From an uncultured bacterium (lineage in GTDB: Bacteria; Actinomycetota; Actinomycetes; S36-B12), in assembly GCA_963793105.1 (NCBI GenBank), contig CAWBZB010000015.1:6168-70167 (forward strand): DNA of 64,000 nucleotides, read 5' to 3'. Below are positions 41,722-64,000 of this stretch, in pieces. Every line of letters starts with the position of its first letter. Within the stretch, counting starts at the first letter, position 1. The notes under the pieces are model-generated. The model saw only the letters and a program-made list of their open reading frames with translations, searched no databases and was not told the origin of the DNA. The translations under genes and the position numbers were made by a program.

Positions 41722-41771
41722 CTCAGGGAAGCTGCCCTGGCGTGACACGACTACCTGGAGAGTGACCTGCC

Positions 41772-43178
41772 GTGAAGAGTGCCGTCGAGACCCTGTCCCC
41801 GACCCGCGTGAAGCTGACGGTCGAGGTGCCCTTCGACGAGCTGAAGCCCAGCATGGACGCCGCCTACGGCCGGATCGCCCAGAGCGTGAACGTGCCCGGG
41901 TTCCGCAAGGGCAAGGTGCCAGCCAGGGTGATCGAGCAGCGGTTCGGCCGCGGCGCGGTCCTCGAGGAGGCCGTCAACGACGCGCTGCCGAAGGCGTACG
42001 ACGAGGCGCTGCGTGAGAACAGCATCGTGCCCGTGGGTCGCCCCGAGCTCGACGTGACGGAGCTGCAGGACGGCGAGGCACTGACCTTCACCGCCGAGGT
42101 CGAGGTGCGGCCGGAGTTCGAGCTCCCCGACTACTCGTCCCTCACGGTCGCGGTGGCCAACGCGGTGCCGGACGAGGCGGACGTCGACGAGCAGCTCGAC
42201 GGACTGCGCGGGCGATTCGCCAACCTCAAGGAGGTCGAGCGCCCGGCGGCGGACGGCGACGTCCTGCTGGTCGACATCGCGGGCGCCACGGCCGAGGGCG
42301 ACGCGGTCGAGGACCTGGTCGGCAACGCGATGTCCTACGAGCTCGGAACCGACGGGATGCTGCCCGGGTTCGACGACGCGGTGCGCGGCGCGGTGAAGGA
42401 CGAGGTGCGCACCTTCGAGTTCGTGCCCGAGAACGGCGACTGGGCGGGCGTCACGCTGGTGGTCACTGCGACCGTGAAGGCCGTGCGCGAGCGTGAGCTG
42501 CCGGCCCTGGACGACGACTTCGCCCAGCTGGCGAGCGAGTTCGACACCGTCGAGGAGCTGCGCAACGACATCCGCGAGCGCCTGACGCAGGGCAAGCGGC
42601 TCGAGCAGGGCGCCGAGGCGCGCAACAACGTCCTGCAGGTGCTGCTCGACTCGATCGACATCCCGCTGCCCGAGGGTGTCATCGCGGCGGAGGTGGAGGA
42701 GCACTTCACCGACGGCCACGACAGCGGCGAGGAGCATCGCGCGGAGGTCGAGCAGCAGGCCCGTGAGTCGCTCAAGAGCCAGTTCGTGCTCGACAAGATC
42801 GCCGAGAAGGAGGAGGTCGCGGTCGGCGAGACCGAGCTCTCCGCCTGGCTGATCCAGCAGGCCCCCCGCTACGGGATGAGCCCCGACGCGTTCGCGAAGG
42901 CGCTCGTCGAGGCCGGCCAGGTGCAGATGGCGATCCAGGACATCCGTCGAGCCAAGGCGCTGGCCGTGGTGCTCGAGTCGGCCACGGTGGTCGACGCCGA
43001 CGGCAACCCGGTGGACCTGAAGGCCCTGGACGAGGAGATGAACCGCCTCCAGGCCATGCAGATGATGCAGGGGATGACCGACGTCGAGGTCGACGAGGAG
43101 GTCGACGTCTACACCGATGAGGACGGCAACGTCGTCGAGGTAGACGTGACCGAGGAGATCATCGAGACGCGGGCCTGA
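41772..43178 (+). CDS. tig: trigger factor
   Basis: ORF 41772..43178. N-terminal ribosome-binding domain (GFRKGKVP), a PPIase-like middle domain and an acidic C-terminus. Confidence 0.95.
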   Translation: MKSAVETLSPTRVKLTVEVPFDELKPSMDAAYGRIAQSVNVPGFRKGKVPARVIEQRFGRGAVLEEAVNDALPKAYDEALRENSIVPVGRPELDVTELQDGEALTFTAEVEVRPEFELPDYSSLTVAVANAVPDEADVDEQLDGLRGRFANLKEVERPAADGDVLLVDIAGATAEGDAVEDLVGNAMSYELGTDGMLPGFDDAVRGAVKDEVRTFEFVPENGDWAGVTLVVTATVKAVRERELPALDDDFAQLASEFDTVEELRNDIRERLTQGKRLEQGAEARNNVLQVLLDSIDIPLPEGVIAAEVEEHFTDGHDSGEEHRAEVEQQARESLKSQFVLDKIAEKEEVAVGETELSAWLIQQAPRYGMSPDAFAKALVEAGQVQMAIQDIRRAKALAVVLESATVVDADGNPVDLKALDEEMNRLQAMQMMQGMTDVEVDEEVDVYTDEDGNVVEVDVTEEIIETRA

Positions 43179-43209
43179 TCCTGCGTCAACGGAGGGGTTG
43201 ACGGGTCTA

Positions 43210-43234
43210 CCCTCGAGGTGTCAGCACTCGAGGG
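43210..43234 (+). terminator. possible tig terminator hairpin
   Basis: CCCTCGAG-N9-CTCGAGGG, 32 nt after the tig stop. No T-tract. The right arm overlaps the SD of the next small ORF. Confidence 0.35.
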
Positions 43235-43241
43235 AGGCGTC

Positions 43242-43430
43242 ATGGCGGGCAACAACAACGCGGCGGCCGGCGGTGCCGGTGCCGTCTACGGGCTCGGGTT
43301 CCTGGGGGCCCTGGTCTGGAACTGGCAGCAGGCCGACACCTTCTGGGGCTATCCCTGGGGCGTCATCGAGTCCTTCTTCTGGCCCGGGTTCCTGGTCTAC
43401 GAGCTGTTCAAGGTGTCGGCCGGCGTCTGA
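43242..43430 (+). CDS. small membrane protein (62 aa), function unknown
   Basis: ORF 43218..43430 from the ATG preceded by GGAGG. Very high GC3 and two hydrophobic segments. Confidence 0.55.
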   Translation: MAGNNNAAAGGAGAVYGLGFLGALVWNWQQADTFWGYPWGVIESFFWPGFLVYELFKVSAGV

Positions 43431-43530
43431 CGGCTTCCGCCCCTGCAGAGTCCAGAATGGGGCCGTGACGCGAAGAGCCCTGGGCCGCACGTCTTACCGA
43501 CGAGGCGATCTCCCAGACGCTCGGCACCTG

Positions 43531-44535
43531 ATGGTGACGTCGGCCGCGAACGCAGCAGCACCCCGCAGGCCGCGAGTGACCGTGGTCGTGGCCACCTACA
43601 ACCGCTCCAACGTTCTGCGTTACGCACTCGACAGCCTGGTCGCTCAGAGTCACTCTGACTGGGAGGCGGTGATCGTCGGTGACCGGTGCACCGACGACAG
43701 CGAGGCCGTCGTGGCCTCCTTCGGGGACGCGCGGATGACGTGGGTGAACCTGCCCCGCAATCTGGGTGAGCAGTCCGGGCCCAACAGCGTCGGGGCCCGG
43801 ATGTCCCGCGGATCCTTCATCGCGTGGCTCAACCACGACGACATGTGGTCCCCTGTGCATCTCGAACACCTGCTCGAGGTCGCGCAGCGTCATGAGGCGG
43901 ACTTCGTGGTCAGTGCATGGCTGGCCGTCGGACCGCACTCCCGGCAGGATCTCGACGCGGGAAGGCTGACAGCGGAAGTCTGGAACGCCACCCCACGTGA
44001 TCGTCTCGATCCAAGGGGTGTCTACCCCGCGTCGACCTGGTTGGTCGACGCCCGGCTGGTACGCCGGATCGGAGACTGGCGACCCGCAAGCACGCTGAGA
44101 GCGGCGCCATCTCAGGACTTCGTCTACCGCTGCTGGGCGAGCGGGGCGCGAATGCGATTGACCGGAAGGCCCAGCGTCGTCGCGATTCAGTCCGGCAGGT
44201 TCGAGGGCGCCTACGCGACGCGACGGGCGAGCGAGCACGAGGCGTTCGCTCCACTCGTGGCGTCGAACAGCCCCGAAGGCCTGATGTCGGAACTCCACGC
44301 CACTGTGCCGCCTCCGCCCGACCTGGATGAGCCTCCATGGCGGCACGCTGGCGCGGTTCAGACCTACGCGTGGCGACAGGCCTACTCAGCATTCTCGCGC
44401 TCGGCCGTGCCGATGGCGGCGCGGCTCGGATGGGGTCCGAACGAACTCAAGGCGTGGGCCAAAGGACGTTCGGCGGGCGCCTTCATGGCCGAGTTACACG
44501 CACAACGGGGCATCGAGCGCAGAGGTTCTGGGTAG
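43531..44535 (+). CDS. glycosyltransferase family 2
   Basis: ORF 43198..44535 from ATG 43531. VVVATYNRS, VGDRCTDDS and WLNHDDMW motifs. Confidence 0.75.
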   Translation: MVTSAANAAAPRRPRVTVVVATYNRSNVLRYALDSLVAQSHSDWEAVIVGDRCTDDSEAVVASFGDARMTWVNLPRNLGEQSGPNSVGARMSRGSFIAWLNHDDMWSPVHLEHLLEVAQRHEADFVVSAWLAVGPHSRQDLDAGRLTAEVWNATPRDRLDPRGVYPASTWLVDARLVRRIGDWRPASTLRAAPSQDFVYRCWASGARMRLTGRPSVVAIQSGRFEGAYATRRASEHEAFAPLVASNSPEGLMSELHATVPPPPDLDEPPWRHAGAVQTYAWRQAYSAFSRSAVPMAARLGWGPNELKAWAKGRSAGAFMAELHAQRGIERRGSG

Positions 44536-44544
44536 GTTGGGGGT

Positions 44545-45081
44545 GTGGCAGATGACGGCTGGCTTCTGGACGGTGTGCAGGACGACGTGTCCATCACGGC
44601 CGATTGGCAGCCGGTCGCGGCACAGGCCATCGATGGCGTGCAGATCCAGGAAGTGCGGAACGTCCCCACCGGCTATGGGCACCTGACCGAGTTCTTCCGC
44701 GCGGACTGGGGCTTCGTCCCGTCTGAGGTGGGGCAGGTCTTCCAGTCGGTCCTGCTGCCCGGCCGATTGTCAGCGTGGCACGCGCATGGCGAGACCACCG
44801 ATCGGCTGTTCGTCGCTTCGGGGGCGTTGCTGGTGGCGTTGTACGACGCCCGCGAGGCCTCGCCCACGCGCGGTCAGCTGCAGGTGGTCCGAAGCTCGAT
44901 CCTGCGACCGCAACTGGTCGTGGTGCCGCCGCGCGTGTGGCACGGGGTCAAGAACGTCGGCAACGAAGCCGCGACCTTGGTCAACATGGTGGACCTTGCG
45001 TACCGCTACGAGGGCCCGGACCACTATCGGCTCCCCCCTGATGCATCCAGCATCCCGTTCGACATCGTGGCCGCCCTGTAG
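44545..45081 (+). CDS. RmlC-like cupin (dTDP-4-dehydrorhamnose 3,5-epimerase family)
   Basis: ORF 44545..45081. Cupin beta-barrel with WHAH and PPRVWHGVKN motifs. Confidence 0.65.
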   Translation: MADDGWLLDGVQDDVSITADWQPVAAQAIDGVQIQEVRNVPTGYGHLTEFFRADWGFVPSEVGQVFQSVLLPGRLSAWHAHGETTDRLFVASGALLVALYDAREASPTRGQLQVVRSSILRPQLVVVPPRVWHGVKNVGNEAATLVNMVDLAYRYEGPDHYRLPPDASSIPFDIVAAL

Positions 45082-45110
45082 TCACCCTCGAGTACGACGT
45101 CGGCATTCGG

Positions 45111-45133
45111 CCCACGGCGAACTCCGCCGTGGG
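45111..45133 (+). terminator. possible terminator hairpin between the cupin gene and clpP1
   Basis: CCCACGGCG-AACTC-CGCCGTGGG, a 9-bp perfect stem. No T-tract. Confidence 0.4.
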
Positions 45134-45206
45134 TGGGGAAGCCGCATGGTGGCCGCCGCGTTAGGGTCAGACAACAGTCACCGAACGGCGACGGCAACAG
45201 GAGGCT

Positions 45207-45848
45207 TTGGTGGGCGACATCTACGTGCCCGACTCTCGCGGTGCGGGCGGCGGCATGACCGGCTTCGGCGACATGCTCGACGAGCGGCTGCTCCGCGAGC
45301 GGATCATCTGGCTCGAGGGCGAGGTGCGGGACGAGAACTCCAACCGCATCGCCAAGCAGCTCCAGGTGCTGGCCGCCGAGGATCCCGAGCGCGACATCAC
45401 CCTCTACATCAACTCGCCCGGCGGCTCGATCAGCGCTGGCATGGTCGTGTACGACACGATGCAGCTGATCCCCAACGACATCACGACGGTGGCGATGGGC
45501 CTGGCCGCCAGCATGGGCCAGTTCCTCCTGTGCGCCGGGGCTGCGGGCAAGCGATACGCCACCCCGAACACGCGCGTGATGATGCACCAGCCGTCAGGCG
45601 GGCTGGGCGGCACGGCGTCGGACATCAAGATCCAGGCCGAGCAGATGCTGTTCATCAAGAAGCGCATGGCCGTGCTCATCGCCGAGCACACCGGCCAGAC
45701 GCTCGAGCAGATCGAGAAGGACTCCGACCGCGACCGCTGGTTCGACGCGGAGGCCGCACGCGAGTACGGAATCATCGACCACGTCTACAGCACGGCCGCT
45801 GACTCGCCCGAGGCGAAGGCCACCAAGGGCAAGGGAGACTCCAAGTGA
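45207..45848 (+). CDS. clpP1: ATP-dependent Clp protease proteolytic subunit
   Basis: ORF 45207..45848 with GTG after AGGAGG. INSPGGS, catalytic Ser in GLAASMG, His in MMHQP. Confidence 0.9.
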
Positions 45849-46471
45849 GCGCCAGCGCGAGCAACCTGACCGGCCCCACGGGCCGCTACATCCTGCCGGA
45901 GTTCCGGGAGCGCAGCGCCAATGGCGAGCGCATCCACAACCCGTACACCAAGCTGTTCGAGGAGCGCATCATCTTCCTCGGCGTGCAGATCGACGATGCC
46001 AGCGCGGACGACGTCATGGCCCAGCTGCTCACGCTGGAGTCCCTCGACCCCGATCGCGACATCCAGATCTACATCAACTCGCCCGGTGGCTCGTACACGG
46101 CGATGACGGCGATCTACGACACGATGCAGTTCGTCAAGCCGCAGGTGCAGACGGTGTGCCTGGGCCAGGCAGCGAGCGCCGCGGCGGTCCTGCTCGGTGC
46201 CGGCAGCCCGGGCAAGCGTTTCGCCCTGCCGCACGCGCGGATCCTCATCCACCAGCCCTACACCGAGGGCGGCGGCCAGGGGTCGGACATCGAGATCCAG
46301 GCGAACGAGATCATCCGGATGCGCACCGAGATGGAGGGCATCATCGCCAAGCACACCGGCCGGAGCCCCGAGCAGGTGGCGGAGGACATCGAGCGCGACA
46401 AGATCCTCACGGCGGCAGATGCCAAGGAGTACGGCCTCATCGACGCGGTCATCTCCAGCCGCAAGGCCTGA
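45845..46471 (+). CDS. clpP2: ATP-dependent Clp protease proteolytic subunit
   Basis: ORF 45845..46471. GTGA overlap with clpP1. INSPGGS, GQAASAA and LIHQP motifs. Confidence 0.9.
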
Positions 46472-46482
46472 GAACCAGCAGC

Positions 46483-48321
46483 ATGCGATCAGGGACGGTC
46501 CCGCTGGGGCCGTCCCTTCGCGCATCCCTGGACCTGATCGGCCAGCGCGCCCGGCGCCGGTACATCGTGGTCGTCATGGCCCAGATGGCCACCTCCCTGC
46601 TGGATCTGGCCGGCGTCCTGCTCATCGGCATGACCGTGGTATTCGCCTACTCGGTTCCGGCGGGCGTTGAGGTCCCGGCGACCGTCCAGACCGCGATCGA
46701 CACCCTCGGCCTCGAGGATGTTCCGCTGACGACCCTGGCCGTGGCCTGTGGCCTGATCGCCGCGGCGCTCCTGCTCACCAAGAGCGCTGTGAGCGCGATC
46801 ATGCTCCAGCGCATCTTCCGCTTCCTGGCCCGGCGTCAGGCCCAGGTGGCTTCGCAGCTGAGCCGCGGGTGGTTCGGCGCTGACGTGCGCGCCGTCCATT
46901 CGCGGACGGACATCGAGATCGAGCAGGCGGTGACGACTTCCGCGTACTTCGCGACCACGGGGCTGCTCGGCTCGCTGGCCGTCGTCGCGACCGAGCTCTC
47001 GCTTCTGGTCGTGCTGTCCGTGGCCCTGGTGTTCGTCGACCCGGTCGCCACGCTGCTGGCGGCGGCGTGCTTCGTCGTGGTGTCTGTCGTGGTGCACCGC
47101 GCGCTCAGTGGGTGGGCAGGACGGCTCGGCCGTGAGCTCACGGAGCGCAGCGTGGCGGGCCGGGCCGATGTCCGGCAGGCCATGGACTCCTTCCGTGAGC
47201 TTCGCACGGCCCGCCGGCTGGGCTACCCGCTCGAACGCTTCGAAGGCAACGTCGAGCGAATCTCGTCGAACAACGCCAACCTGCTCTTCATCAACAACGT
47301 GCCGAAGATCGCCTACGAGGCGGCGCTGGTCGTCGGCGCGCTCCTGCTCGTCGGCTGGCGGGTCGTGACGGGTGACGTGGCGGAAGCCCTGGCCTTCCTC
47401 GCGGTGTTCCTGACTGCGGCCGCGCGCCTGCTGCCGTCCATGGTCCGACTGCAGGGGCAGCTGGTGAGCATGCGGGCCGCCGCCGGCCAGGCGAGGCTCA
47501 CCTTCGAGTTGGCTGATGAGGAGCGCGAGCGCGGCGCGCCGCCGAGTCTGGACGACCTGGGCCGGCGACTCCCACTGTCCGGAGATGAGACCGCTGACTT
47601 CGACCCGACTGTCGAGGTCACGGACGTCACCGTGACGTACCGGGGCAACGTTGAGCCGACGCTGCAGAACGTGACGCTGAGAATCGCGGCGGGGGAGTCC
47701 CTGGTCCTGGTGGGTCCGACAGGGGTGGGGAAGTCGACTCTGGTCGACGTGATCCTGGGGGCCACGGAGCCGGAGAGCGGCAGCGTCCGCATCGGCGGGC
47801 TCGACCCCCGCGAGTGCCAGGAGCGCTGGCCCGGCGCGATCGCGTACATGCCGCAGGACTGCCCGATCTGGAGCGGCACGGTTCGGGACAACGTGGCCTT
47901 GGGGATTCCTGCCGACCAGATCGACGAAGATGCGGCGTGGCGTGCCCTCGAGCAGGCGCACCTGGCCTCGGACGTCCGGGAGCGTGGCGGTATCGACGCG
48001 CAGGTCGGGCAGGCCGGTCGGCAGTTGAGCGGTGGGCAGCGGCAGCGCCTGGGCATCGCCCGGGCCCTGTACTCCCAGCCGCGGCTGCTGGTCCTCGACG
48101 AAGCGACCAGTGCCCTAGACGAGGAGACGGAGGCGCTCATCGGCGGCGTGATCGAGGAGCTGCGCGGAACCGTCACCGTGATCGCCGTCGCGCACCGGCG
48201 GTCCACCATCGAGCGGGCCACGCGGATCGACGTGGTCGCCGATGCCGGCATCGCCTTCCTCGGCTCGCGGAGTACTCGTCTTCAGCCAGCAGGAGGGACG
48301 GCTCTCGCCCCACTACCGTGA
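46483..48321 (+). CDS. ABC exporter, fused permease/ATP-binding protein
   Basis: ORF 46156..48321 from ATG 46483. Six-TM domain. Walker A GPTGVGKST, signature LSGGQRQR, Walker B LLVLDEATSALD. Confidence 0.85.
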   Translation: MRSGTVPLGPSLRASLDLIGQRARRRYIVVVMAQMATSLLDLAGVLLIGMTVVFAYSVPAGVEVPATVQTAIDTLGLEDVPLTTLAVACGLIAAALLLTKSAVSAIMLQRIFRFLARRQAQVASQLSRGWFGADVRAVHSRTDIEIEQAVTTSAYFATTGLLGSLAVVATELSLLVVLSVALVFVDPVATLLAAACFVVVSVVVHRALSGWAGRLGRELTERSVAGRADVRQAMDSFRELRTARRLGYPLERFEGNVERISSNNANLLFINNVPKIAYEAALVVGALLLVGWRVVTGDVAEALAFLAVFLTAAARLLPSMVRLQGQLVSMRAAAGQARLTFELADEERERGAPPSLDDLGRRLPLSGDETADFDPTVEVTDVTVTYRGNVEPTLQNVTLRIAAGESLVLVGPTGVGKSTLVDVILGATEPESGSVRIGGLDPRECQERWPGAIAYMPQDCPIWSGTVRDNVALGIPADQIDEDAAWRALEQAHLASDVRERGGIDAQVGQAGRQLSGGQRQRLGIARALYSQPRLLVLDEATSALDEETEALIGGVIEELRGTVTVIAVAHRRSTIERATRIDVVADAGIAFLGSRSTRLQPAGGTALAPLP

Positions 48322-49277: not shown

Positions 49278-49637
49278 CTAGGAGACACGGGCCGTGGATT
49301 CCCGGTCCGTGTCAAGAGGCTTCCACAGGAGCCGCGTCGCCGTGGTCCGGGCGATCACGTGGAATCCGTGGCGGAGGTAGAACCCGCCCGCGTCGCGCTT
49401 GCCGGAGGATTCTGAGGGGTACAGGTCGCTGTTGGCCACCACGATCGCGCGGTACTGGATCGTGAGCGTCGACATGAGGAATCCGAGTAGGTGGCCTCCC
49501 GAGGTGGCCGCGAAGGCCAGTGCGTCCGCAGCGTGTGTATGGAGGCGCGTTCTCTGGGGGAGGCGCTCGAGAAGTTCGCAGTGCATCTCGGTGATTCCCG
49601 GAAGGTCCGCTTCCACCGCCGGGCCAATGTCGACCAT
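49278..49637 (-). CDS. short GNAT-like acetyltransferase fragment or hypothetical protein
   Basis: ORF 49278..49637. The terminal FYLRHGF resembles the GNAT C-terminus, but the acetyl-CoA-binding motif is not evident. Confidence 0.3.
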   Translation of the reverse strand: MVDIGPAVEADLPGITEMHCELLERLPQRTRLHTHAADALAFAATSGGHLLGFLMSTLTIQYRAIVVANSDLYPSESSGKRDAGGFYLRHGFHVIARTTATRLLWKPLDTDRESTARVS

Positions 49638-51629: not shown

Positions 51630-52028
51630 CTACCCGTCGTGCTTGCCGGCGGGGAGGTCGACGATCTTGCAGGGGATCGCCGTGTTGTCGGCGAGGTGGT
51701 ACGACGCGCAGACGCGGTGGTAGCCGTCGGCGATGGTCAGCGGCACGCCCCGGTGGAGGTCGCCGCGCACGAGCAGGACGGGCGACAGCTTGGTCCCCTT
51801 GATCACCTTCGCGAGGTCCTCGGCCACGTGCGCGTCGCTGAACGGCAGCAGCTCGAGCCCGGACGCCCGCAGGAGGTCCTTGGCCTGGTAGGTCGTGATG
51901 GGGGCCTTCTTCAGCGCCTTGACCACGGAGTCGACGTCGCGCTTGGTCAGGTGCAGGCTCAGGTAGGTGGCGGCGGCCGGGTAGTCGTGCGCGTCGGGCT
52001 TCTCGTCCCACAGGGGCGTCTCGGTCAT
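51630..52028 (-). CDS. small ParB/sulfiredoxin-fold (DGxHR) protein, function unknown
   Basis: ORF 51630..52142 from MTETPLW. LSPVLLVRG...PLTIADGYHRVCA resembles the ParB N-terminal domain core. The stop is 6 nt from the GT4 start. Confidence 0.45.
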   Translation of the reverse strand: MTETPLWDEKPDAHDYPAAATYLSLHLTKRDVDSVVKALKKAPITTYQAKDLLRASGLELLPFSDAHVAEDLAKVIKGTKLSPVLLVRGDLHRGVPLTIADGYHRVCASYHLADNTAIPCKIVDLPAGKHDG

Positions 52029-52183
52029 GATCTGCACGGCGGTCTCCGCTTCGCGAGGTGAGGGCGTGCCCCTCACCCTAGCGACGGGGTGTCCGCGCGG
52101 GGTCCTCATCGACAGCGCTGCGTTGGTAGGTTCCGGTGGCATGAGCGCCGAACAGCGTTGCCGAGCTGACCGACTTCGACAAC

Positions 52184-52919: not shown

Positions 52920-53342
52920 TCAGAGCGCGAACGCCGCCGAGTCGGGCAGGAAGTAGTGGTACGGGTTGATGTACAGGGCGATCTTCAACCCGGCTGCGGT
53001 GCGCTGCACGATCCAGTCCTCGCCGACGACCACCTTGATGACCCCTTCTGCGCCGACCACCCGGCCCTCCCAGTAGACCGCGCCGACCGCGCGTGCCCGC
53101 TCCGGCTCGGACGACAGCGGGGTGATCTCCCACGGGTCGAGGGGAATGTGCTTCTCGTCGGTGAGCCGCTGGTGGATCTCGTAGTTGCCCTGCATCGTGA
53201 TGTCCTCCCCGTGCGGCACGACGATGACGGGCGAGGGGTGCACGAAGTAGGCCGACTGCGCGGCGGCGTCGCCCTTGTCGATCATGACGGTCTCGTGGAA
53301 CCGGTTCATGAGGTCGAGGACCTCGTCGATCGTGATGGCCAT
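52920..53342 (-). CDS. NTF2/SnoaL-like fold protein (tentative)
   Basis: ORF 52920..53342 with SD AGGAG 6 nt upstream. Size and alpha+beta pattern only. Confidence 0.45.
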   Translation of the reverse strand: MAITIDEVLDLMNRFHETVMIDKGDAAAQSAYFVHPSPVIVVPHGEDITMQGNYEIHQRLTDEKHIPLDPWEITPLSSEPERARAVGAVYWEGRVVGAEGVIKVVVGEDWIVQRTAAGLKIALYINPYHYFLPDSAAFAL

Positions 53343-53424: not shown

Positions 53425-53694
53425 TCAGGAATCCGACGCGGTGAGGATCCCGATCGTCGTCATCTTCGCCAGGAACGGCTCGACGTCCGCGCGGCACCGC
53501 TCGTCGCTGACGTCGAACTCCTCCCGCAGTGACGAGACCAGGGCGTCGACCGTCGCCGGCTCCGCCAGCAGCGCCCAGACGCGCGCCCCCACACGGTCGA
53601 GCGAGTGGTAGCTGAAGTCGGCAGGAGAGAGCAGGACGACCTGGCCGTCGACGACAGCGTCGACGGCTCCGGTGGCGCGTGAGTACACGGTCAT
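53425..53694 (-). CDS. PqqD-family peptide chaperone (RiPP recognition element)
   Basis: ORF 53425..53763 from ATG 53694, with ATGA overlap on the kinase stop. VVLLSPADFSYHSLDRVGARVWALL...TVDALVSSLREEFDV...DVEPFL is the typical PqqD pattern. Confidence 0.8.
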   Translation of the reverse strand: MTVYSRATGAVDAVVDGQVVLLSPADFSYHSLDRVGARVWALLAEPATVDALVSSLREEFDVSDERCRADVEPFLAKMTTIGILTASDS

Positions 53695-54562
53695 GGCGGC
53701 GTGGTGCTCCCTTGGTCGACGATGATCGAGGCGATGTGGTCCAGGACGATGTCGAGGTGCCACCCTTCGGGCGGTCGGGTGACGCGGTGCACCTCGACGC
53801 TGGAGGCCAGCCGGGTGGCCCAGGCGAAGAACGAGTGAGCGCGACCGTCGGCAGCAGAGATGCCGGCGGAGTTGGAGTTGTTCAGGATCGCCTGGATCCG
53901 CTCGGCGCCCGACGAGCGGCGCGGCAGGCGACGTCGGTGGCAGTGCTCTCGTCGATCATCAGCTCGACGGCGACGCGGAGCGGCCGGGCGCCGTCGACCC
54001 ACGGGCACGCTCGCGCTGATCTTGCTGAGCTCGGACGTCCCGACGCGGGCCGTGTCGGGCACCTCGAAGTGCGCCGCGGCCTGGTCGGTGAGGTGCACGG
54101 GACGCTCCCAGCCGAAGACGATACGGCTGGTCGTCGACGAAGTCGACCGGGACGACGTCGTCGATGATCAGGTGCGTGCCCGCGGCGGCTCGAGTGCGGT
54201 GACGGTGGTGGACTTGCCGGCGCCGGAGAAGCCCATGACGGCCAGGGCGCCGGCGTCGATGACGACGGCGGACGCGTGCAGCGTGTACTCCTGCCGCAGG
54301 ACGCGGATCCAGCGCGGCGCCCACCCGTAGACCAGGTAGTCCATGTCGTGGACCGTGCGGCCGGGGCTCCGGCTCGAGGGTGACGCTCTGGGCGGTGACG
54401 TGCATGCGCCCGACGCCGTCGATCAGGGCGAGGAACTCACCGGGCGCCATCTGCATGAAGCCCTCGTCGCGGGTGACGCCCTCGAGGCTCTCGGCGATGG
54501 GCGCCGACGACCACGTCGACCCCCCATTCGCGCGCGGGGAAGCCGGCGGCGATGGAGGTCAT
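53691..54562 (-). pseudogene. HprK-related P-loop serine kinase (lasso/RiPP-associated type), at least six frame changes
   Basis: Seven colinear segments in three frames rebuild about 283 aa, including LHASAVVIDAGALAVMGFSGAGKSTTVTAL and HLIIDDVVPV. Frame changes lie near 54500, 54362, 54185, 54120, 53995 and 53915. Confidence 0.7.
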
Positions 54563-54684: not shown

Positions 54685-54813
54685 CTACGCTGGGTGGGGC
54701 TGGGACTGGGGGTGCCGTTGCGGATGCGGGCGTGACGGGTGCCCGGACGCGCCGTCGGCGTCGCTGAGGGGCGTGACCTCGGGGGCCTGCCAGTCGAGCT
54801 TCTCGCTAGTCAT
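54685..54813 (-). CDS. putative RiPP precursor peptide P1 (42 aa as written; tail frame uncertain)
   Basis: MTSEKLDWQAPEVTPLSDADGASGHPS... It is a DNA-level tandem paralogue of P2. Relative to P2 it has a 1-nt insertion near 54735 and lacks one AACGGC unit. Confidence 0.5.
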   Translation of the reverse strand: MTSEKLDWQAPEVTPLSDADGASGHPSRPHPQRHPQSQPHPA

Positions 54814-54822
54814 TGTCGGGTC

Positions 54823-54957
54823 CTAGGTTCGGGTGGGGCTGGGACTGGGGGTGCCGTTGCCGTTGCGGATGCGGGCGGACGGGTGCCCGGATGCGCCGTC
54901 GGCCTCGGTGATAGAGGTGACGTGCGGCGCGGTCCACTCGCTCTTGTCAGGAGTCAT
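54823..54957 (-). CDS. putative RiPP precursor peptide P2 (44 aa)
   Basis: MTPDKSEWTAPHVTSITEADGASGHPSARIRNGNGTPSPSPTRT, within ORF 54823..55008. GC3 is very high. Has the W-x-A-P-x-V leader-like motif. Confidence 0.55.
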   Translation of the reverse strand: MTPDKSEWTAPHVTSITEADGASGHPSARIRNGNGTPSPSPTRT

Positions 54958-55060: not shown

Positions 55061-56104
55061 ATGCCAACACTGCGCCGCTACCTGTCGGCCGGGCGCGACG
55101 TCGCGCGTGACGCGGTGACCTGGCGCCCGGGTCGGCAGACCAGCGAGGACACCTACCTGGCCGTCCGCACCCTGCATCGCAAGACCGGAGGAGTCTCGAG
55201 CAGGGCCGCGCTCGCGGTGGTGCGGGCACGTGCACGACCGGGGCGGGGCTGACGCCGCGGGCGCGCTGGACGCCCGCGTGGCAGCCGGCGCTCGCGGACG
55301 GTGAGCAGGGACGGCGTCGAGCGTGACGCCGCCGCTGCTCGACGACGGCGGCCGCTGGCGCGGATCCGCGACTTCGCGGCGACGGCCCCGGCCATCCTGT
55401 CGCAGCGTCGACGGCAGCGACGCAGGCGCGGGACCCTGCAGGATCGGGACGCCGGACACGGCCGGGGTGCGCATCGTCGAGCGGTTCGTCCTCGACCAGC
55501 CCGACATCCAGGGCGTCATCGCCAGCCCGCAGGTGCGCGACTTCGCGCGCGGCCTACTTCCACGCGACCCCCGTGATGCACCCGCCGCAGCTGTACTGGT
55601 CGCTGCGCCGGCGCCCGGCTGATCGGGCGAGGCGGCGGCCGTCGAGCGCGCGTCGGTTCCACTGGGACTACGACGGCCTGGCCGGCCTGCGGCTGCACAT
55701 GTACCTGACCGACGTGGACGAGGGCGCGGCGCCGATGAGCTACGTCCTGGGCAGTCACGCCCAGGGCGGGCTTCGGTCACCGGCACTGCGGCAACGCGGA
55801 CATGGGCGTCGCCGACGAGGAGCTGTACGCGCAGTACCCGGCCTCGGCGGTGCGGGCCATCACCGGCCCGGCCGGCACGACGTTCATCAGCGACTCCCGG
55901 GGCCTGCACCGCGGCAACGACGCCATCAGCGCGGACCGGCTCTTCCTCGTCATGCCGATGCAGGCCACCGGGTTCGGCGGCTACCAGCTGCGCCCGCGGC
56001 TGGTGACCCCGAAGGACCCGGGGCTGAAGGCCGGGATCGAGCAGGGCCGGGTGGAGCTCAGCCTCTTCCGGCCCCGCCCCGAGGGGTCGGCCGGAACGCG
56101 CTGA
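55061..56104 (+). pseudogene. PhyH-like Fe(II)/2-oxoglutarate dioxygenase, at least three frame changes
   Basis: ATG 55061 follows GGGAGG. Colinear pieces lie in ORFs 54833..55252, 55323..55622, 55573..56433 and 55802..56104. FHWDYD...YVLGSH and GLHRG give a His-x-Asp...His triad. Confidence 0.6.
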
Positions 56105-56512
56105 CGGCCGTGAACCCGTCGCTTGCCGGTCCGCCGACCACGGTGCCGGTGCTGCCCGACCAGCCAGGCGTGGGCGTCCCAGCCATCGGTGCGGCGCAGG
56201 CCGATGATCGCCGTGCCGGGCCGTCGGCGCAGCCGCAGCATGACCTGTGCGGCCAGGGCCTGGTCGAGGCAGTTCGCCTGCCACGGCACGCGACGGACGG
56301 CACGGCCCACCGCCGCCTGCACGGACGCCTCGACTGCCGGTGGGCGAGGAGCCGTCCGGCCCGGCGTCGGGGGCGGGCACGGGGCTCCCGAGCAGGCGGT
56401 GCCAATGCCGCGTCGACAGGGTCCGGCGGGTGACGGATGCGACGGCGAGGACGGTCCATGCCTCGGCGAGCATCGCAAGGTCCATCGCCCGCACGCGCGC
56501 CCGCTCAGCCAC
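56058..56512 (-). pseudogene. lasso-peptide B2-type transglutaminase-like cysteine peptidase, two frame changes
   Basis: The N-terminus AMLAEAWTVLAVASVTRR is in ORF 55037..56512. The core RRVPWQANCLDQALAAQVMLRLRR...DAHAWLVG is in ORF 55981..56985. The tail STGTVVGGPASDGFTAV is in ORF 56058..56459. Confidence 0.7.
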
Positions 56513-56571: not shown

Positions 56572-56673
56572 ATGACGAATCCCAGCACCCCCGAGGCCCG
56601 CGAGCCCTGGCAGTCCCCGTCCGTCGAGCAGATCGCCGTGACCGACGACGCGCAGTCCATTTCCTTCGCCTGA
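56572..56673 (+). CDS. putative RiPP precursor peptide P3 (33 aa)
   Basis: MTNPSTPEAREPWQSPSVEQIAVTDDAQSISFA, the end of ORF 56437..56673. 31 of 33 codons end in G/C. Shares W-x-S-P-x-V-x-x-I with P1 and P2. Confidence 0.55.
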   Translation: MTNPSTPEAREPWQSPSVEQIAVTDDAQSISFA

Positions 56674-56684
56674 CCGATCCGGTC

Positions 56685-57827
56685 CTAGCCGCGAAGCGGC
56701 AGTCGGCCTCCTCGCGTGAGCGCGAGCCAGCGGGCGAGGTCGCGGGCCTCCCGGTAGGTCAGCCGCGCATCCCCTCGATGCGCGTGCCGCCACGTGCGCC
56801 GCACGCTCAGCAGTTCCGCGGCCAGTCGCGGATCCGTCTGGATCGCGCCCATGATCGTCCGCGACAGGTTCGTGGTCGTCGTTGGGGCGGGGCCTGAACC
56901 AGGGGCCGGCAGCGGCTCGCCCGCCCGGATGGCGCGCAGCGCGGGCAGGAGCGGGTACCCGAGCCGGTGCTGGTAGGCGTGCCACACGTTGGGCCGCAGG
57001 TCCACCTCGAACACCGCGTGCGTCCCGTTCGGGCGCCTTATGGCGGACAGGTTGCCGAACCAGCGACCGCCCAGCGCCGCGGCGATGCGGTCGAGGTCGG
57101 CAAGCAGGCGGCGATCGGTCAGCGGGACGAACTGCCGCGTCACCGAGACCCCGTAGGGGCCGAGCGACCGGAGCACGCGGGAGTAGGGGGCGGTGGCGAC
57201 CCGGCCGTCACTGACGAGGATGTCGATGGACACCAGGAACCCGTCGACGAGTTCCTCGACGAGGTAGGGCCCCTCGTTCCCGCGTCGCGGCACCACCACG
57301 TCGCCGGGAGATCGCAGCACTGTGGTGCCGGCGCCCGCGCCGCTGCGGTCCGCCTTGACGATCACCGGGTACCCGAGGGTCGCGGCTGCGTGCGGCAGGT
57401 CCCCGGGGGAGGGGGCCACCGTCCAGCGGGGCTGGTCGACGCCGAGGTCGCGCAGGAGTGCGGCCATCCCGGTCTTGGTGCCGACGGCGTCGAGGTGCGC
57501 GGCGGGTACCGGCAGCAGGGCCAGTGCACGCGGGTGGTGCTCGGCGGCCGCGAGCACGTCCCAGACGTCTGCATCGGAGCCGAGGATCACCCAGTCGCCG
57601 GGTCCGACCGAGTCGGCGATCGTCGCGAGGATGGCGTGCCGCTGCTCGAGGTCGTCGGGCAGCGTGGCGCATCGGCGGGGGTGGCGGCTGTAGCCCAGGC
57701 GGCTCCCCGGAGCCGACCACACGTCGACGGTGAGGCCGGCGGCGGTCAACATCGGCAGGAGGCGAGCAACGGCGGACGGGTGCGGGGAAATGACGACAAC
57801 GCGGTCGACGCCGGCGCCCGTGGTCAT
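56685..57827 (-). CDS. ATP-grasp domain ligase
   Basis: Last 380 codons of ORF 56685..58922 from ATG 57827. GYPVIVKADRSGAGAG, YLVEELVDG and FEVDLRPN are typical ATP-grasp motifs. Confidence 0.8.
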   Translation of the reverse strand: MTTGAGVDRVVVISPHPSAVARLLPMLTAAGLTVDVWSAPGSRLGYSRHPRRCATLPDDLEQRHAILATIADSVGPGDWVILGSDADVWDVLAAAEHHPRALALLPVPAAHLDAVGTKTGMAALLRDLGVDQPRWTVAPSPGDLPHAAATLGYPVIVKADRSGAGAGTTVLRSPGDVVVPRRGNEGPYLVEELVDGFLVSIDILVSDGRVATAPYSRVLRSLGPYGVSVTRQFVPLTDRRLLADLDRIAAALGGRWFGNLSAIRRPNGTHAVFEVDLRPNVWHAYQHRLGYPLLPALRAIRAGEPLPAPGSGPAPTTTTNLSRTIMGAIQTDPRLAAELLSVRRTWRHAHRGDARLTYREARDLARWLALTRGGRLPLRG

Positions 57828-57859: not shown

Positions 57860-58604
57860 CTACAGCAGCCCGAGCCGCGCTGGCCCGCGCGACGGCCTCC
57901 TGCCTCGTGGAAACGCCGAGGACCCTCAGGGCCCGCTGGAGGTCGGCCTTGACGGTGTCGCGGGAGCACCCGAGCTCCAGGGCGATCGACGCGTTGCCGA
58001 GCCCCCGTTCGACGCCCTGCAGGATGCTCGCCTGCCGTGGGGTGAGGGCGAGCCCGGGGCTCCAGGATCGCGGGAGGTCGGGGGGCGCTGGCCGGCTCGG
58101 GTGCGTCAACCACAGTCCCAGGGCGGCCGACAGGCCGAGCAGGGCCGGCTGGGCGTCGACGGATGCGGCGGCGGGGTCGGCGGCGAGGAAGCCGTAGGCC
58201 CCGACGGCCGTGCCGTCGAGCGCGATCGGGACGCTCATGAGCACCCCGTCGGGCAGGTCCGCGAGCAGCGAGGTCCACATCCCGGCATCGATCTCGAGCA
58301 GCGGGTACTCGTCCAGCAGTGTGCGCAGCGACGTGGCCACCGGCATTCCCTGCTGCACGGCGAGCACGAAGGGCAGGTGGCCGCGCATCGGGATCGCCCG
58401 GTACCGGGCAAGCTCGTCGGTCGGGTAGCCGTCGCTCGCCAGCGTGAGCAGTTCGTCGCCGACCAGGCGCACGATGCTGCCGGCGGTCGCCCCGAAGGCG
58501 GCGAGCGGACCGTGCACGAGCGCGGGGACGACGATCGCCGGGGAGGGTAGGGAGGCGAGGAGGCGCAGGAACGGGCCGAGCGCCGGCAGGTGGAGGCCGG
58601 TCAC
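57860..58604 (-). pseudogene. GAF-like + LuxR-type HTH regulator, paralogue 1; frame change near 57885 removes the stop
   Basis: GTG 58604 overlaps the paralogue-2 stop (GTGA). A one-base correction gives the typical C-terminus ARLGLL followed by TAG at 57860-57862. As written it reads through into the ATP-grasp gene. Confidence 0.7.
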
Positions 58605-59338
58605 GAGGGGAGCTGCCCGAGGGCGGTGGCCCGTTCGATCGCCGAGGCGCGCGTGGCGACGCCCAGGGCGGCGTAGATGCGGCGCAGCTCCGCCTTCACC
58701 GTCGAGTCCGAGATCGAGAGGGCGGCGGCGATGGCGGTGTTGGACCTCCCGGCCGCCACCATGCCCAGGATGTCGACCTGCCGGGCTGTCAGCGACCCTG
58801 CGACGACGTCCGGAGCGAGGTCGGCCGCGGGACCCGGGTGGCTCAGCCACAGGCCCAGGGCGGCGCCGTACGCCTCGAGCCCGGCGATCTCCGTGGTGCT
58901 CCACTGCCGTTCGTCGCGGCAACTGAATCCGAAGGCGCCGATCGCGCGGCCCTGCAGCACGATGGGCGCGGTCACCAGCGACCCGTACCCCTCACTGGCA
59001 ATGGCCCGGTCCCAGAGGTCGTCGTCCCGCTCGAGCCCGGCATTCTCCGGCAGCACCTCCAGGGCACCGGAGATGATGACGGCCTGCTCGCGGAAGGCCC
59101 GCGTCATCGGGTAGTCGCCGGCGTTGGGCATCACCCGGTAGGGCTCGACCATCTCGGCCGGGTATCCGTAGTCCCCGACGATCACCTGGTCTCTGCTCAC
59201 CGCGGTGCTGAGGACGCCGGCGTGCGCGCCGAACTCGGCCAGCGGCCCCGTGACCAGGGCGGTGATCACCGTCGTCGGGTCCGGCCGGGTGCCGAGCAGG
59301 AGCAGGATCTCGGCGATCCCCGCCCGGTCGCCGCTCAT
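58601..59338 (-). CDS. GAF-like + LuxR-type HTH regulator, paralogue 2
   Basis: ORF 58601..59338. C-terminal LTARQVDILGMVAAGRSNTAIAAALSISDSTVKAELRRIY. Confidence 0.8.
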   Translation of the reverse strand: MSGDRAGIAEILLLLGTRPDPTTVITALVTGPLAEFGAHAGVLSTAVSRDQVIVGDYGYPAEMVEPYRVMPNAGDYPMTRAFREQAVIISGALEVLPENAGLERDDDLWDRAIASEGYGSLVTAPIVLQGRAIGAFGFSCRDERQWSTTEIAGLEAYGAALGLWLSHPGPAADLAPDVVAGSLTARQVDILGMVAAGRSNTAIAAALSISDSTVKAELRRIYAALGVATRASAIERATALGQLPS

Positions 59339-60117
59339 CGGGCCAGCTCCGCGGCCTGCTGCGCGTCGTCGAGGAGTCCGAGCGCTCGCGCCCGCGCGAC
59401 GGCGACGTCGCGGTCATCGGTGCGCAGCATCCGCATGATCTGGCCCAGGTCGGTCTTGACGGTGGATGCCGAGTAGCGAAGGAGGTGGGCGATCAGCTCG
59501 GTCGGCAGGCCCTGCTCGACCATCAGCAGGATGAGCTCCTGACGGTGGGTGAGGGCGACGGGTGTCTCGTCGGACTGGACGGCCGTCGGCGTGACCTTGA
59601 CCCGTCGCGGGTGCGTCAGCCACAGGCCGAGGGCCGCACCGATCGCGAGAAGCGCGGTCTCGTCGGCGTCGGTCCAGTCGACCTTGCGGTCGCAGATGAA
59701 TCCGTATGCGCCGACGACGCGCCCGTCGTACCGGATCGGCACGTTGCCGATGGACTCTGCCCCGAGCCGCTCGACGATCGCCTGCCACAGCGCCTCGTCG
59801 AGGGCGGCCGCGCGGTAGTCGCGCGCGTTGGTGGCCGCCTCGGCGGGCTGGAACGAGTCGTCCCGGGCGGCCCGGGTGATCGCGAAGTCGAGGCGTAGCG
59901 GGATCCGGCCGTGCCGGGAGGTCTCGTCCGCGGTGTGCCCGTACATGGCCAGCCGGTCCAGGTGATCGCCGTCGATCAGCTTCCAGATCCCGCCGGCGCG
60001 CGCGCCGTAGTGGCTCAGCGGTCCGTGCACCAGGGCAGCGAGGGTGCCTTCCGGGGCGGGCAGGGTCGACAGGTACTGCAGCCATGACGACTGTCCGGGC
60101 AACGCTGCGGACGGCAT
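59335..60117 (-). CDS. GAF-like + LuxR-type HTH regulator, paralogue 3
   Basis: ORF 59335..60555 from ATG 60117 after GGAGGTGGAGG. C-terminal LTHRQELILLMVEQGLPTELIAHLLRYSASTVKTDL. Confidence 0.8.
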   Translation of the reverse strand: MPSAALPGQSSWLQYLSTLPAPEGTLAALVHGPLSHYGARAGGIWKLIDGDHLDRLAMYGHTADETSRHGRIPLRLDFAITRAARDDSFQPAEAATNARDYRAAALDEALWQAIVERLGAESIGNVPIRYDGRVVGAYGFICDRKVDWTDADETALLAIGAALGLWLTHPRRVKVTPTAVQSDETPVALTHRQELILLMVEQGLPTELIAHLLRYSASTVKTDLGQIMRMLRTDDRDVAVARARALGLLDDAQQAAELAR

Positions 60118-63446: not shown

Positions 63447-64000
63447 TCAGACCTCTTGGCGCTGCTGGAATGCGTCGAACTCGGCCTGGAGCTCGTCCAG
63501 GTTCTTCACCAGGTCCCAGTCGCCACTGGACACCTGCTTCTCGGTGACCGTGGAGACATCGGCGGGGGCGACGCCGAGTGAGTCGAAGACCCGGGCGCAG
63601 GTGCCGGGAACGTCGCCGACGAGCTGGTCGTAGTGCACGTCCAGGTAGTTCGGCCCGGCGAAGCGGAGCGCGAAGTAGGCATCGGCCCGGTACATGTCGT
63701 CGAAGAAGGCCCGGGCGCGGTCCGGTTCGATCTCGAACGGCTCCACGGTGGCCCGGGACTGAGGGTCGTGCGACCAGTTGACCCACTGCCGGCTGCGGGT
63801 CGCGAACTCCAGGGAGATCAGGACGCTGAGGTAGTCATCGCGCCGCATGTGCAGGAGATGGGCGGTGGGGTAGTGCGCCCGAATGCGCCTGAAGAGGTGC
63901 GTCGCGCCGCCGGTGGACACGTGGTCAGCGAAGATCTTGACGCCCACGACGTCCACCTCGCGGCCCAGGTAGTCGGTACGCACGCCGAAGACGTGCTCGT
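63447..64000 (-). CDS. Stf0-like sulfotransferase family protein, 5-prime end outside window
   Basis: ORF 63447..63983 stays open to the window edge. The general Stf0-type layout is present (...LHMRRDDYLSVLISLEFA ... YLDVHYDQLVGD). Confidence 0.55.
   Translation of the reverse strand, partial: EHVFGVRTDYLGREVDVVGVKIFADHVSTGGATHLFRRIRAHYPTAHLLHMRRDDYLSVLISLEFATRSRQWVNWSHDPQSRATVEPFEIEPDRARAFFDDMYRADAYFALRFAGPNYLDVHYDQLVGDVPGTCARVFDSLGVAPADVSTVTEKQVSSGDWDLVKNLDELQAEFDAFQQRQEV

Follow-up and report, generated by a model that had tools for sequence, protein, structure and literature searches.

Peptide pathways related to lasso biosynthesis but lacking a cyclase were described only in 2026, as the linear polyphosphorylated peptide (LPP) clusters of Bacillota, which lie within capsular polysaccharide loci (Popov, Dubiley et al., Nat Commun 2026, PMC13381572). 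LPP precursors have YxxPxV leaders (consensus YxxPxVLxHQxIxFETxxS) and variable C-termini. The LPP kinase polyphosphorylates Ser3 of the core and the products are linear; the final product and its biological role are unknown (PMC13381572). A WxxPxV motif is bound by lasso-type recognition elements (RREs) for peptides synthesized ribosomally and modified post-translationally (RiPPs) (PMC13381572). In paeninodin and pseudomycoidin lasso clusters, an HPr-kinase homologue phosphorylates a precursor Ser and a nucleoside triphosphate (NTP) transferase glycosylates the phosphate (reviewed in PMC8498205, citing Zhu 2016 and Zyubko 2019). LPPs and paeninodins are both restricted to Bacillota according to the authors of the LPP study, whose main text does not mention ATP-grasp enzymes, a negative that leaves the supplementary co-occurrence tables out of account (PMC13381572). 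A precedent for an ATP-grasp enzyme that modifies a ribosomal peptide is the actinobacterial PGM1 of pheganomycin biosynthesis, which acylates the peptide N-terminus (PMC8939145). Here we analyzed an ATP-grasp ligase gene at positions 56685-57827 of a 64,000-nucleotide stretch (the window) from an uncultured actinobacterium of lineage S36-B12 (contig CAWBZB010000015.1). It lies beside genes for a PqqD-type RRE, a lasso-type B2 leader peptidase and small peptides.

Our analysis indicates that the cyclase-less pathway has a parallel in Actinobacteria, in which B2 is kept, two precursor families (pepA and pepB) are present and an ATP-grasp ligase is found that occurs almost nowhere else. We favor, at roughly even confidence, the reading that this enzyme is a tailoring ligase, accessory to a cyclase-less, lasso-derived RiPP-like gene set that specifies a linear, LPP-like pathway. 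Full-text literature searches returned no description of such an actinobacterial set.

A rare ATP-grasp ligase outside the curated families

The ligase gene reads from an ATG at 57827-57825 to a TAG at 56687-56685 on the minus strand, and the G+C content at its third codon positions (GC3) is ~0.9. Three full-length homologues (374-378 aa) align with the product end to end at 48-54% identity (E 1e-89 to 1e-102). An AlphaFold2 (AF2) model built from nine homologues reached a mean predicted local distance difference test score (pLDDT) of 87 and a predicted template modeling score (pTM) of 0.86. Foldseek comparison with the PDB matched ATP-grasp enzymes at E ~1e-14 to 1e-16; there were 508 matches at E<=0.001, and the best 50 listed are all ATP-grasp enzymes. 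K118, K158, E274, D276 and N280 are invariant across the nine homologues and represent the ATP-binding lysines and the metal-binding cluster (E274/D276/N280), so that the three-domain fold, the ATP-binding Lys and the Mg-binding acidic/Asn residues of the superfamily are all present. The Pfam match to PF02222 is marginal, with 26.5 bits against a threshold of 27. Because of the GC3, the homologues, the AF2 model and the Foldseek result, we nevertheless conclude that 56685-57827 is a real, intact ATP-grasp gene, as a first-pass annotation of the window had proposed for this 380-aa protein.

The database gene call is a fusion. No stop codon separates the ligase from the preceding regulator gene (LuxR1), and both read as a single 639-aa ORF (open reading frame; 58604-56685). 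The canonical LuxR1 end, ARLGLL followed by TAG at 57862-57860, is intact in the adjacent frame (junction 57860-57880), and we therefore ascribe the fusion to a 1-nt indel. Alignment with Met1 of the homologues places the ancestral start of the ligase at ATG 57827.

For each of the nine family members, all curated family models fall short of their cutoffs. The best score against a curated primary-metabolism model was 21.8 bits, with cutoffs of 143-1027 bits, and weak matches to PurT, PurK, carbamoyl phosphate synthetase (CPSase), Ddl, RimK, LysX and AccC span the ATP-binding sub-domain only. With all curated models so far under their cutoffs, the enzyme falls within no primary-metabolism family. 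A relation to graspetide ligases, which the first-pass annotation had also considered, failed to appear in profile, PDB or fold comparisons beyond the level of the superfamily. Graspetide maturase models of NCBIfam (E<=1) are absent from the best 25 of the 27 families matched by the window protein, and likewise, for the nine members together, from the 25 most widely matched of 56 families. Neither a graspetide ligase nor PGM1 is found among all 38 single-sequence PDB matches up to E=10 or among the best 60 profile matches, and the best 50 Foldseek matches listed include no graspetide ligase.

The two top fold matches are the L-amino-acid ligases RizA (4wd3) and BL00235 (3vot), followed by PurK, PylC, biotin carboxylase, PurT and YwfE. 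For all of these matches the template modeling (TM) score lies between 0.5 and 0.65 and the identity between 12 and 18%, and RizA and BL00235 resemble PurK, biotin carboxylase and PurT in both E-value and TM score. The likeness to RizA and BL00235 is no stronger than that to PurK or biotin carboxylase and therefore says little about the substrate. The modeled fold is a three-domain ATP-grasp of the small-substrate type, and the fold match does not indicate which substrate is used. A C-terminal helical extension (~residues 320-372) is specific to this subfamily.

Relatives retrieved with a profile from 1.84 billion cluster representatives fell into three tiers: P0002 and P0003 came out at E ~1e-190, P0005-P0009 (five proteins) at E 1e-57 to 1e-77, and ~1,500 generic ATP-grasps of ~400 aa made up the third. 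Above the generic level there were only three close homologues and about six more; among ~15 billion proteins, about ten relatives are closer than generic ATP-grasps. Word-indexed homologue searches found three relatives with the window protein and two with P0009. Scanning GTDB genomes recovered only generic ATP-grasps (25-30% identical), and scanning metagenomes only P0005-type loci. The family is therefore rare as well as distinct from curated families and, since so few relatives were obtained, co-occurrence statistics rest on few loci. In a neighbor-joining tree the window protein groups with P0002-4, P0006/P0028 and P0009, P0005/P0007/P0008 form a sister clade, and the peptide-associated enzymes make up one clade. 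Among remote relatives, P0048 (952 aa) is an ATP-grasp fused to an MsbA-type ATP-binding cassette (ABC) exporter, P0093 (~600 aa) carries an N-terminal PlsC-type acyltransferase, and P0111 and P0149 (~600 aa) have N-terminal extensions of ~240-260 residues. Domain composition hints at exported or membrane-linked substrates for the wider family.

Companion peptides and gene neighborhoods

Locus L012, whose ATP-grasp (P0009) is 38-40% identical to the window protein, has a contiguous run of ATP-grasp, pepB, NTP_transf_5, HprK-like kinase, pepA, PqqD and B2 genes. B2 is cut by the contig end there, and pepB is convergent with the ligase gene, with a 4-nt overlap. L001 (P0003) reads GT2 glycosyltransferase, cupin, ATP-grasp, convergent pepB and B2. 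L003 (P0002) reads LuxR end, pepA, ATP-grasp and pepB, with pepA on the strand of the ligase gene and 8-20 nt upstream of it. In L022 (P0028) the ligase gene, of P0006 type, is followed by two convergent pepB-like ORFs. A convergent pepB 3' of the ligase gene was thus seen in five independent lineages (window/L017, L001, L003, L012, L022), L017 being a sister strain of the window with the same gene order. It is the immediate downstream neighbor in 5/6 lineages with a visible 3' flank, and it lies within ~20 nt of the ligase stop or overlaps it by 4 nt, except in L022 (~200 nt). The ligases of these pepB-linked loci are only 38-53% identical to one another. Two further loci were found through PqqD and contain HprK, PqqD, NTP_transf_5 and Lsr2 (L018) or HprK, PqqD and pepA (L021). 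The HprK-like kinase is intact in L012 and L021. Within their contigs, L001, L012, L017, L018 and L021 contain no lasso cyclase.

Within the peptide-associated clade, the ATP-grasp gene is consistently followed by pepB and stands beside RRE, B2, kinase and NTP-transferase genes. Its link to the RRE and B2 is no local accident. Co-occurrence with PqqD/B2 genes, which the first-pass annotation had named as a check, and with the same peptides recurs in L012, L001, L003 and L022 as well as in the sister strain L017, and primary-metabolism clustering combined with absence from PqqD/B2 loci was not what we found. Also in agreement with that annotation, the B2, the PqqD RRE and the peptides P1-P3 were all located in the window (Table 1), and the ATP-grasp is the sole carboxylate-activating enzyme near B2 and the RRE. 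No SGGxDS PP-loop of an asparagine-synthetase cyclase occurs in the six frames of the window, and PF00733 matched none of the ~40 larger window ORFs scanned. Genes for Lsr2, a xenogeneic silencer, lie in or beside the island in L001 (7907-8281) and L018 (1699-2049), consistent with horizontally acquired, silenced DNA.

The pepB products are 29-39 aa long and have a PWQxPxV leader. Seven sequences give the consensus ..(E/Q)PW(Q/S)xPxVxx(I/V)x.V(D/E/A/S)(D/R)A, followed by a variable tail of 4-13 residues with Ser in most. The consensus of eight pepA sequences is M..D...W.xP.V.PL[ST][DE].[DE]GAS....A[RN][IFL]RN[G], with a hypervariable, Ser/Thr/Pro-rich tail of 8-16 residues. Judged by alignment, this combination of conserved leader and variable core is the usual layout of RiPP precursors. 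The two pepB-like ORFs of L022 (1636-1755 and 2507-2625, both on the minus strand) share the tail VDASL[LM]LSA, unlike the hypervariable tails elsewhere, and one has Thr in place of the motif Pro (TWSATSV).

These sequences bear on two ways in which the ligase might cross-link or close a peptide. The first-pass annotation had suggested that the ATP-grasp might replace the missing cyclase. Once B2 had removed the leader, it would activate a carboxylate of that peptide and join it to the new N-terminus, giving a lasso-like or a head-to-tail macrolactam. B2 and the RRE are indeed present while a cyclase is absent in every locus seen, the chemistry of an acyl phosphate and an amine could suffice in principle, and the C-terminal carboxylate is the only one common to all variable tails. 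However, no Thr at position -2 is conserved in pepA or pepB, and neither family has a conserved Asp/Glu at ring distance (core 7-9) from plausible cleavage sites. A lasso macrolactam is therefore not a general product. Moreover, the pepB tails have just 4-13 residues, the fold is of the type of small-substrate ligases, and we know of no precedent for lasso or head-to-tail cyclization by an ATP-grasp enzyme. The LPP enzyme set works without cyclization (PMC13381572). In view of the lack of a lasso-competent core, the cyclase-less LPP pathways, the missing relation to graspetide macrocyclases in the comparisons above and a sister clade that resides in polysaccharide loci without peptides, the idea of a cyclase replacement was not supported, and we consider it very doubtful.

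A graspetide-like activity would instead install ester or amide bridges between Ser/Thr and Asp/Glu in the pepA segment [ST][DE]x[DE]G, downstream of WxxPxV. Graspetide cores typically have donor and acceptor residues that are conserved, and in 8/8 pepA sequences a Ser/Thr at W+9, acids at W+10 and W+12 and a Gly at W+13 are conserved. This segment holds the only conserved acidic residues. pepB, the companion of the ligase, lacks an equivalent Ser/Thr-acid pair and has VVSRAQ at this place in L012, and an i to i+3 ring would be unusually small. Graspetide ligases bind leaders directly and are not known to do so through a PqqD RRE, and the searches described above returned neither a graspetide maturase model nor, among the PDB matches listed, a graspetide ligase. 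We regard such cross-linking as highly improbable. As far as the precursor alignments can tell, both the cyclase-replacement and the graspetide reading fit the peptides poorly.

Candidate roles of the ligase

The tailoring reading that we favor takes its starting point from the gene set itself, i.e. a discrete PqqD RRE, B2, an HprK-like kinase, NTP_transf_5, pepA and pepB, located inside envelope glycan loci. By analogy with paeninodin and LPP pathways, the RRE would bind the WxxPxV leader, the kinase would phosphorylate a Ser of the variable tail, the NTP transferase and glycosyltransferases would decorate the phosphorylated peptide, and B2 would cleave off the leader. The ATP-grasp would convert a carboxylate to an acyl phosphate and form a single amide bond, either at one end of the peptide or on its glycan. 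The C-terminal carboxylate might in this way receive an amino acid or an amine. Alternatively, the enzyme might acylate the N-terminus that B2 has exposed, in the manner of L-amino-acid ligases and PGM1. The peptide would remain linear, with no lasso tied by the ATP-grasp. Ligation of something to the peptide had been the second option of the first-pass annotation and appears more likely than replacement of the cyclase. Taken as a whole, the interpretation given there is supported in part.

Several observations weigh against a role of the ligase in peptide tailoring. Its fold likeness to L-amino-acid ligases is equaled by PurK and biotin carboxylase (TM 0.5-0.65). The gene is convergent to pepB and not co-transcribed with it, and the co-directional upstream partner is often a glycan gene. 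A GT2 gene abuts the ligase start in L009 and L023, where only the 5' flank is visible, GT2 and cupin genes precede it in L001, and a GNAT gene precedes it in L002 (P0004), where an IspD-like gene follows and peptides, including pepB, are absent. The sister clade P0005/P0007/P0008 stands beside Wzy, WecG and ABC-2 genes without peptides: the P0005 loci (L008, L014, L015) read Wzy_C, ATP-grasp, DUF4012, and the P0007 locus reads WecG, ATP-grasp, ABC-2, with NTP_transf_5 two genes from the ligase on a 57-kb contig. We looked for pepB-like ORFs beside the sister-clade ligases and found none. In addition, the window ligase is intact and identical to that of L017 over 720 nt while B2 and HprK are broken, which fits a function with no need of B2 or HprK. 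About six lineages were inspected, and most of their contigs are short.

Many of the same observations would be explained if the ligase served an envelope polysaccharide or teichuronic-type locus, for instance by amidating a uronic acid with an amine or amino acid, and the RiPP genes were mere neighbors, brought close by the habitual embedding of such peptide clusters in capsule loci. In Campylobacter, capsule synthesis involves ATP-dependent amidoligases that act on glucuronate. The GT2 genes adjacent or translationally coupled to the ligase in L009 and L023, the GT2-cupin pair of L001, the Wzy_C, WecG, DUF4012 and ABC-2 neighbors of the peptide-less sister clade, and the fusions to an ABC exporter (P0048) or a PlsC-type acyltransferase (P0093) in remote relatives all agree with this. 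So does the glycan island of the window, which also contains homologues of the cupin (70% identical) and of the GNAT found in those loci, as well as the presence of TupA-like ATP-grasps in the same island of L017 and the retention of the ligase in the window next to broken B2 and HprK. Against a glycan substrate, pepB is directly downstream in 5/6 lineages while the surrounding glycan genes vary by locus, the L003 ligase lies between pepA and pepB, and L012 has no glycosyltransferase between the ligase and the RiPP genes. We consider a glycan ligase, the main rival of the tailoring reading, possible, if doubtful.

A further scheme, which we judge unlikely, would make the ATP-grasp the bridge between the peptide and glycan halves of the island. 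Through an amide bond it would couple the short pepB/pepA cores, at the N-terminus freed by B2 or at the C-terminus, to a carboxylate or amine of the locus-specific envelope glycan or of a phospho-Ser sugar, and the peptide-less sister enzymes would amidate glycans with free amino acids; in a second reading, it would close the short cores head to tail. If coupling were true, the product would be a conjugate of a ribosomal peptide and a glycopolymer. If the ligase acts on peptides, as the favored tailoring reading holds, this would be a new RiPP tailoring reaction and a handle on why such pathways sit in capsule and envelope glycan loci. The intact L012-type set spans ~5 kb and is small enough for reconstitution.

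The window copy and its likeness to described pathways

Features of the window locus are collected in Table 1.

Table 1. Features of the ATP-grasp locus and its surroundings in window coordinates.
Feature	Position	Strand	Basis or remark
ATP-grasp ligase, orphan subfamily, 380 aa, intact	56685..57827	-	ORF, homologues, AF2 model, Foldseek
pepB (P3), MTNPSTPEAREPWQSPSVEQIAVTDDAQSISFA	56572..56673	+	convergent, 11 nt between pepB and ATP-grasp stops
pepA (P1), MTPDKSEWTAPHVTSITEADGASGHPSARIRNGNGTPSPSPTRT	54823..54957	-	family alignment
pepA (P2), frameshifted tail; other frame restores HARIRNGTPSPSPTQ	54685..54813	-	family alignment
Lasso-type B2 leader peptidase (transglutaminase-like Cys protease), three reading frames	56060..56512	-	PF13471, NF033537
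Discrete PqqD-type RRE, intact, probable 89-aa product 53425-53694	53425..53763	-	PF05402 E 2.8e-16
HprK-like peptide kinase, at least 3 frameshifts plus in-frame stop 54168-54170	53691..54540	-	tblastn with intact L012 kinase
Possible PhyH-like Fe/2OG dioxygenase remnant, three frames, weak assignment	55300..56104	+	between pepA and B2
GAF-LuxR regulator 1, C-terminal 1-nt frameshift	57860..58604	-	GerE match, GTG start 58604
GAF-LuxR regulator 2	58601..59338	-	
GAF-LuxR regulator 3	59335..60117	-	
MsbA/PglK/bacteriocin-type ABC exporter, true start after 46156, candidate exporter	46156..48321	+	
Cupin / sugar-epimerase-like protein	44536..45081	+	70%-identical homologue directly upstream of L001 ATP-grasp
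GNAT-like fragment	49278..49637	-	homologue directly upstream of L002 ATP-grasp

Within the window, the ATP-grasp, PqqD and pepB genes read intact, and frameshifts affect HprK, B2, one of the pepA genes and the PhyH-like gene. B2 is recognized by NF033537 (48.9 bits, cutoff 33). Its frame changes, from HAWLVG to STGTVVGGPASDGF in another frame, are evident against the B2 genes of L001 (53.6 bits) and L012, which run uninterrupted in a single frame up to the contig end. The window PqqD is 60% identical to that of L012, and its best NCBIfam match is lasso_PqqD_Bac, under the cutoff. The P-loop fragment of HprK has weak matches to TIGR04355 and TIGR04352. For the PhyH-like gene, a hand-stitched translation matched PF05721 under its cutoff (E 0.015, 16 bits); GC3 is 0.96 over 55739-56104, and the gene is broken in L017 too. 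An NTP_transf_5 gene was not detectable within the window. The large housekeeping genes covered by the window scan, among them those for alpha-amylase, prolyl oligopeptidase, MalQ, amidase, trigger factor, ClpP1/P2 and erythromycin esterase, align to Pfam over about their full length, and the damage is therefore local. The window copy of the gene set may be defective.

In L017, PqqD is 99% and the ClpP/ABC region 99.7% identical to the window. The ligase genes are identical over the first 720 aligned nt, and all 17 differences fall in the last ~46 codons. The pepB-B2-PhyH segment is only 81% identical, with 72 gap openings, and the HprK region and one glycosyltransferase block are gap-rich. 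Differences between the two strains are confined to sharp-edged islands (49.75-51.25, 53.75-54.6 and 55.05-56.85 kb) with many mismatches and indels. We had considered purifying selection on the ligase from this comparison and rejected it after a codon count, as the differences mark the edge of a hypervariable island and give no dN/dS signal. L017 breaks at other positions than the window: the N-terminal 130 residues of its HprK are in a single frame, and the glycosyltransferase block that is intact in the window is broken in L017. The L017 copy of the GT2/GT4 block of the window aligns with many gaps and carries no gene calls. In the stretch of L017 that separates the MIP gene from the ABC exporter there are also TupA-like and ATPgrasp_ST genes, which the window lacks. 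We weighed assembly error as a cause of the frameshifts; the housekeeping genes are whole, yet L017 is broken at different positions. The breaks may reflect true decay, allelic replacement in a hypervariable island or consensus error in strain-variable regions.

Upstream of the ligase, the GTG start of LuxR1 overlaps the stop of LuxR2 (GTGA, 58604-58601). A LuxR gene is also found directly upstream of pepA and the ATP-grasp in L003, and the three tandem GAF-LuxR proteins may therefore be pathway regulators. The window cupin lies between trigger factor and clpP1-clpP2 (41766-46471), so that island genes are spread here across ~14 kb. An ABC_tran gene is located within the same island in L001. 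Two ORFs flank the aquaporin gene beside PqqD (52920-53342, 140 aa, and 51630-52142, 170 aa, both on the minus strand; GC3 0.87-0.92). Neither has a Pfam or NCBIfam match, and at least the 140-aa ORF is conserved in L017. A Sulfotransfer_3 gene (63447-63998, minus strand, E 1e-8) is cut by the window end, and the P0007 contig has a faint sulfotransferase match.

Compared with described enzymes, the ligase shares the three-domain ATP-grasp fold with the L-amino-acid ligases (RizA, BL00235, YwfE/BacD), whose members RizA and BL00235 head the Foldseek matches, but is only 12-18% identical to them and has its own C-terminal helical extension. PGM1 is not among the matches listed for the window enzyme. 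Like the macrocyclases of microviridin-type graspetides, the ligase is an ATP-grasp enzyme encoded beside small ribosomal peptides; it has no sequence or profile relation to them past the superfamily level, and its locus differs from graspetide systems in having an RRE and B2 and a pepB without a conserved donor-acceptor pair.

At the level of the pathway, the locus has the RRE (PqqD), the B2 and the WxxPxV leader motif of a canonical lasso cluster, whereas the PF00733 cyclase, a conserved Thr at -2 and a conserved core Asp/Glu at 7-9 were not found. Paeninodin-type clusters combine B1 (PqqD) and B2 with an HPr-kinase homologue, an NTP transferase, a WxxP leader and an ABC exporter, and some include a sulfotransferase (PMC8498205), as the window does at 63.4-64.0 kb. 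Unlike these clusters, the actinobacterial set has no asparagine-synthetase cyclase or lasso-competent core and has an ATP-grasp.

Among described systems the LPP family is the nearest. The actinobacterial set is distinguished from it by several features. Its leader peptidase is a B2 Cys protease (window, L001, L012), whereas LPP clusters use a SipW-like signal peptidase; no signal-peptidase family matched the ORFs scanned, in a scan that was not exhaustive. Its leaders are of the Trp type (...PL[ST][DE]x[DE]GAS...ARIRNG) instead of YxxPxVLxHQxIxFETxxS, its precursors form two distinct families, it includes an ATP-grasp ligase, and the hosts are high-GC Actinobacteria, not Bacillota. The window copy also departs from LPP clusters in its interrupted kinase and the absence of NTP_transf_5. 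Other features are shared with LPP clusters. A discrete RRE, a kinase resembling HprK and an NTP transferase occur without a cyclase (all in L012, in part in L018), and one to three precursors carry a [Y/W]xxPxV leader and hypervariable C-termini. As in LPP clusters, the genes lie in capsule or envelope loci that are rich in glycosyltransferases and have an MsbA-like exporter close by, represented in the window by glycosyltransferases, the cupin and the ABC exporter.

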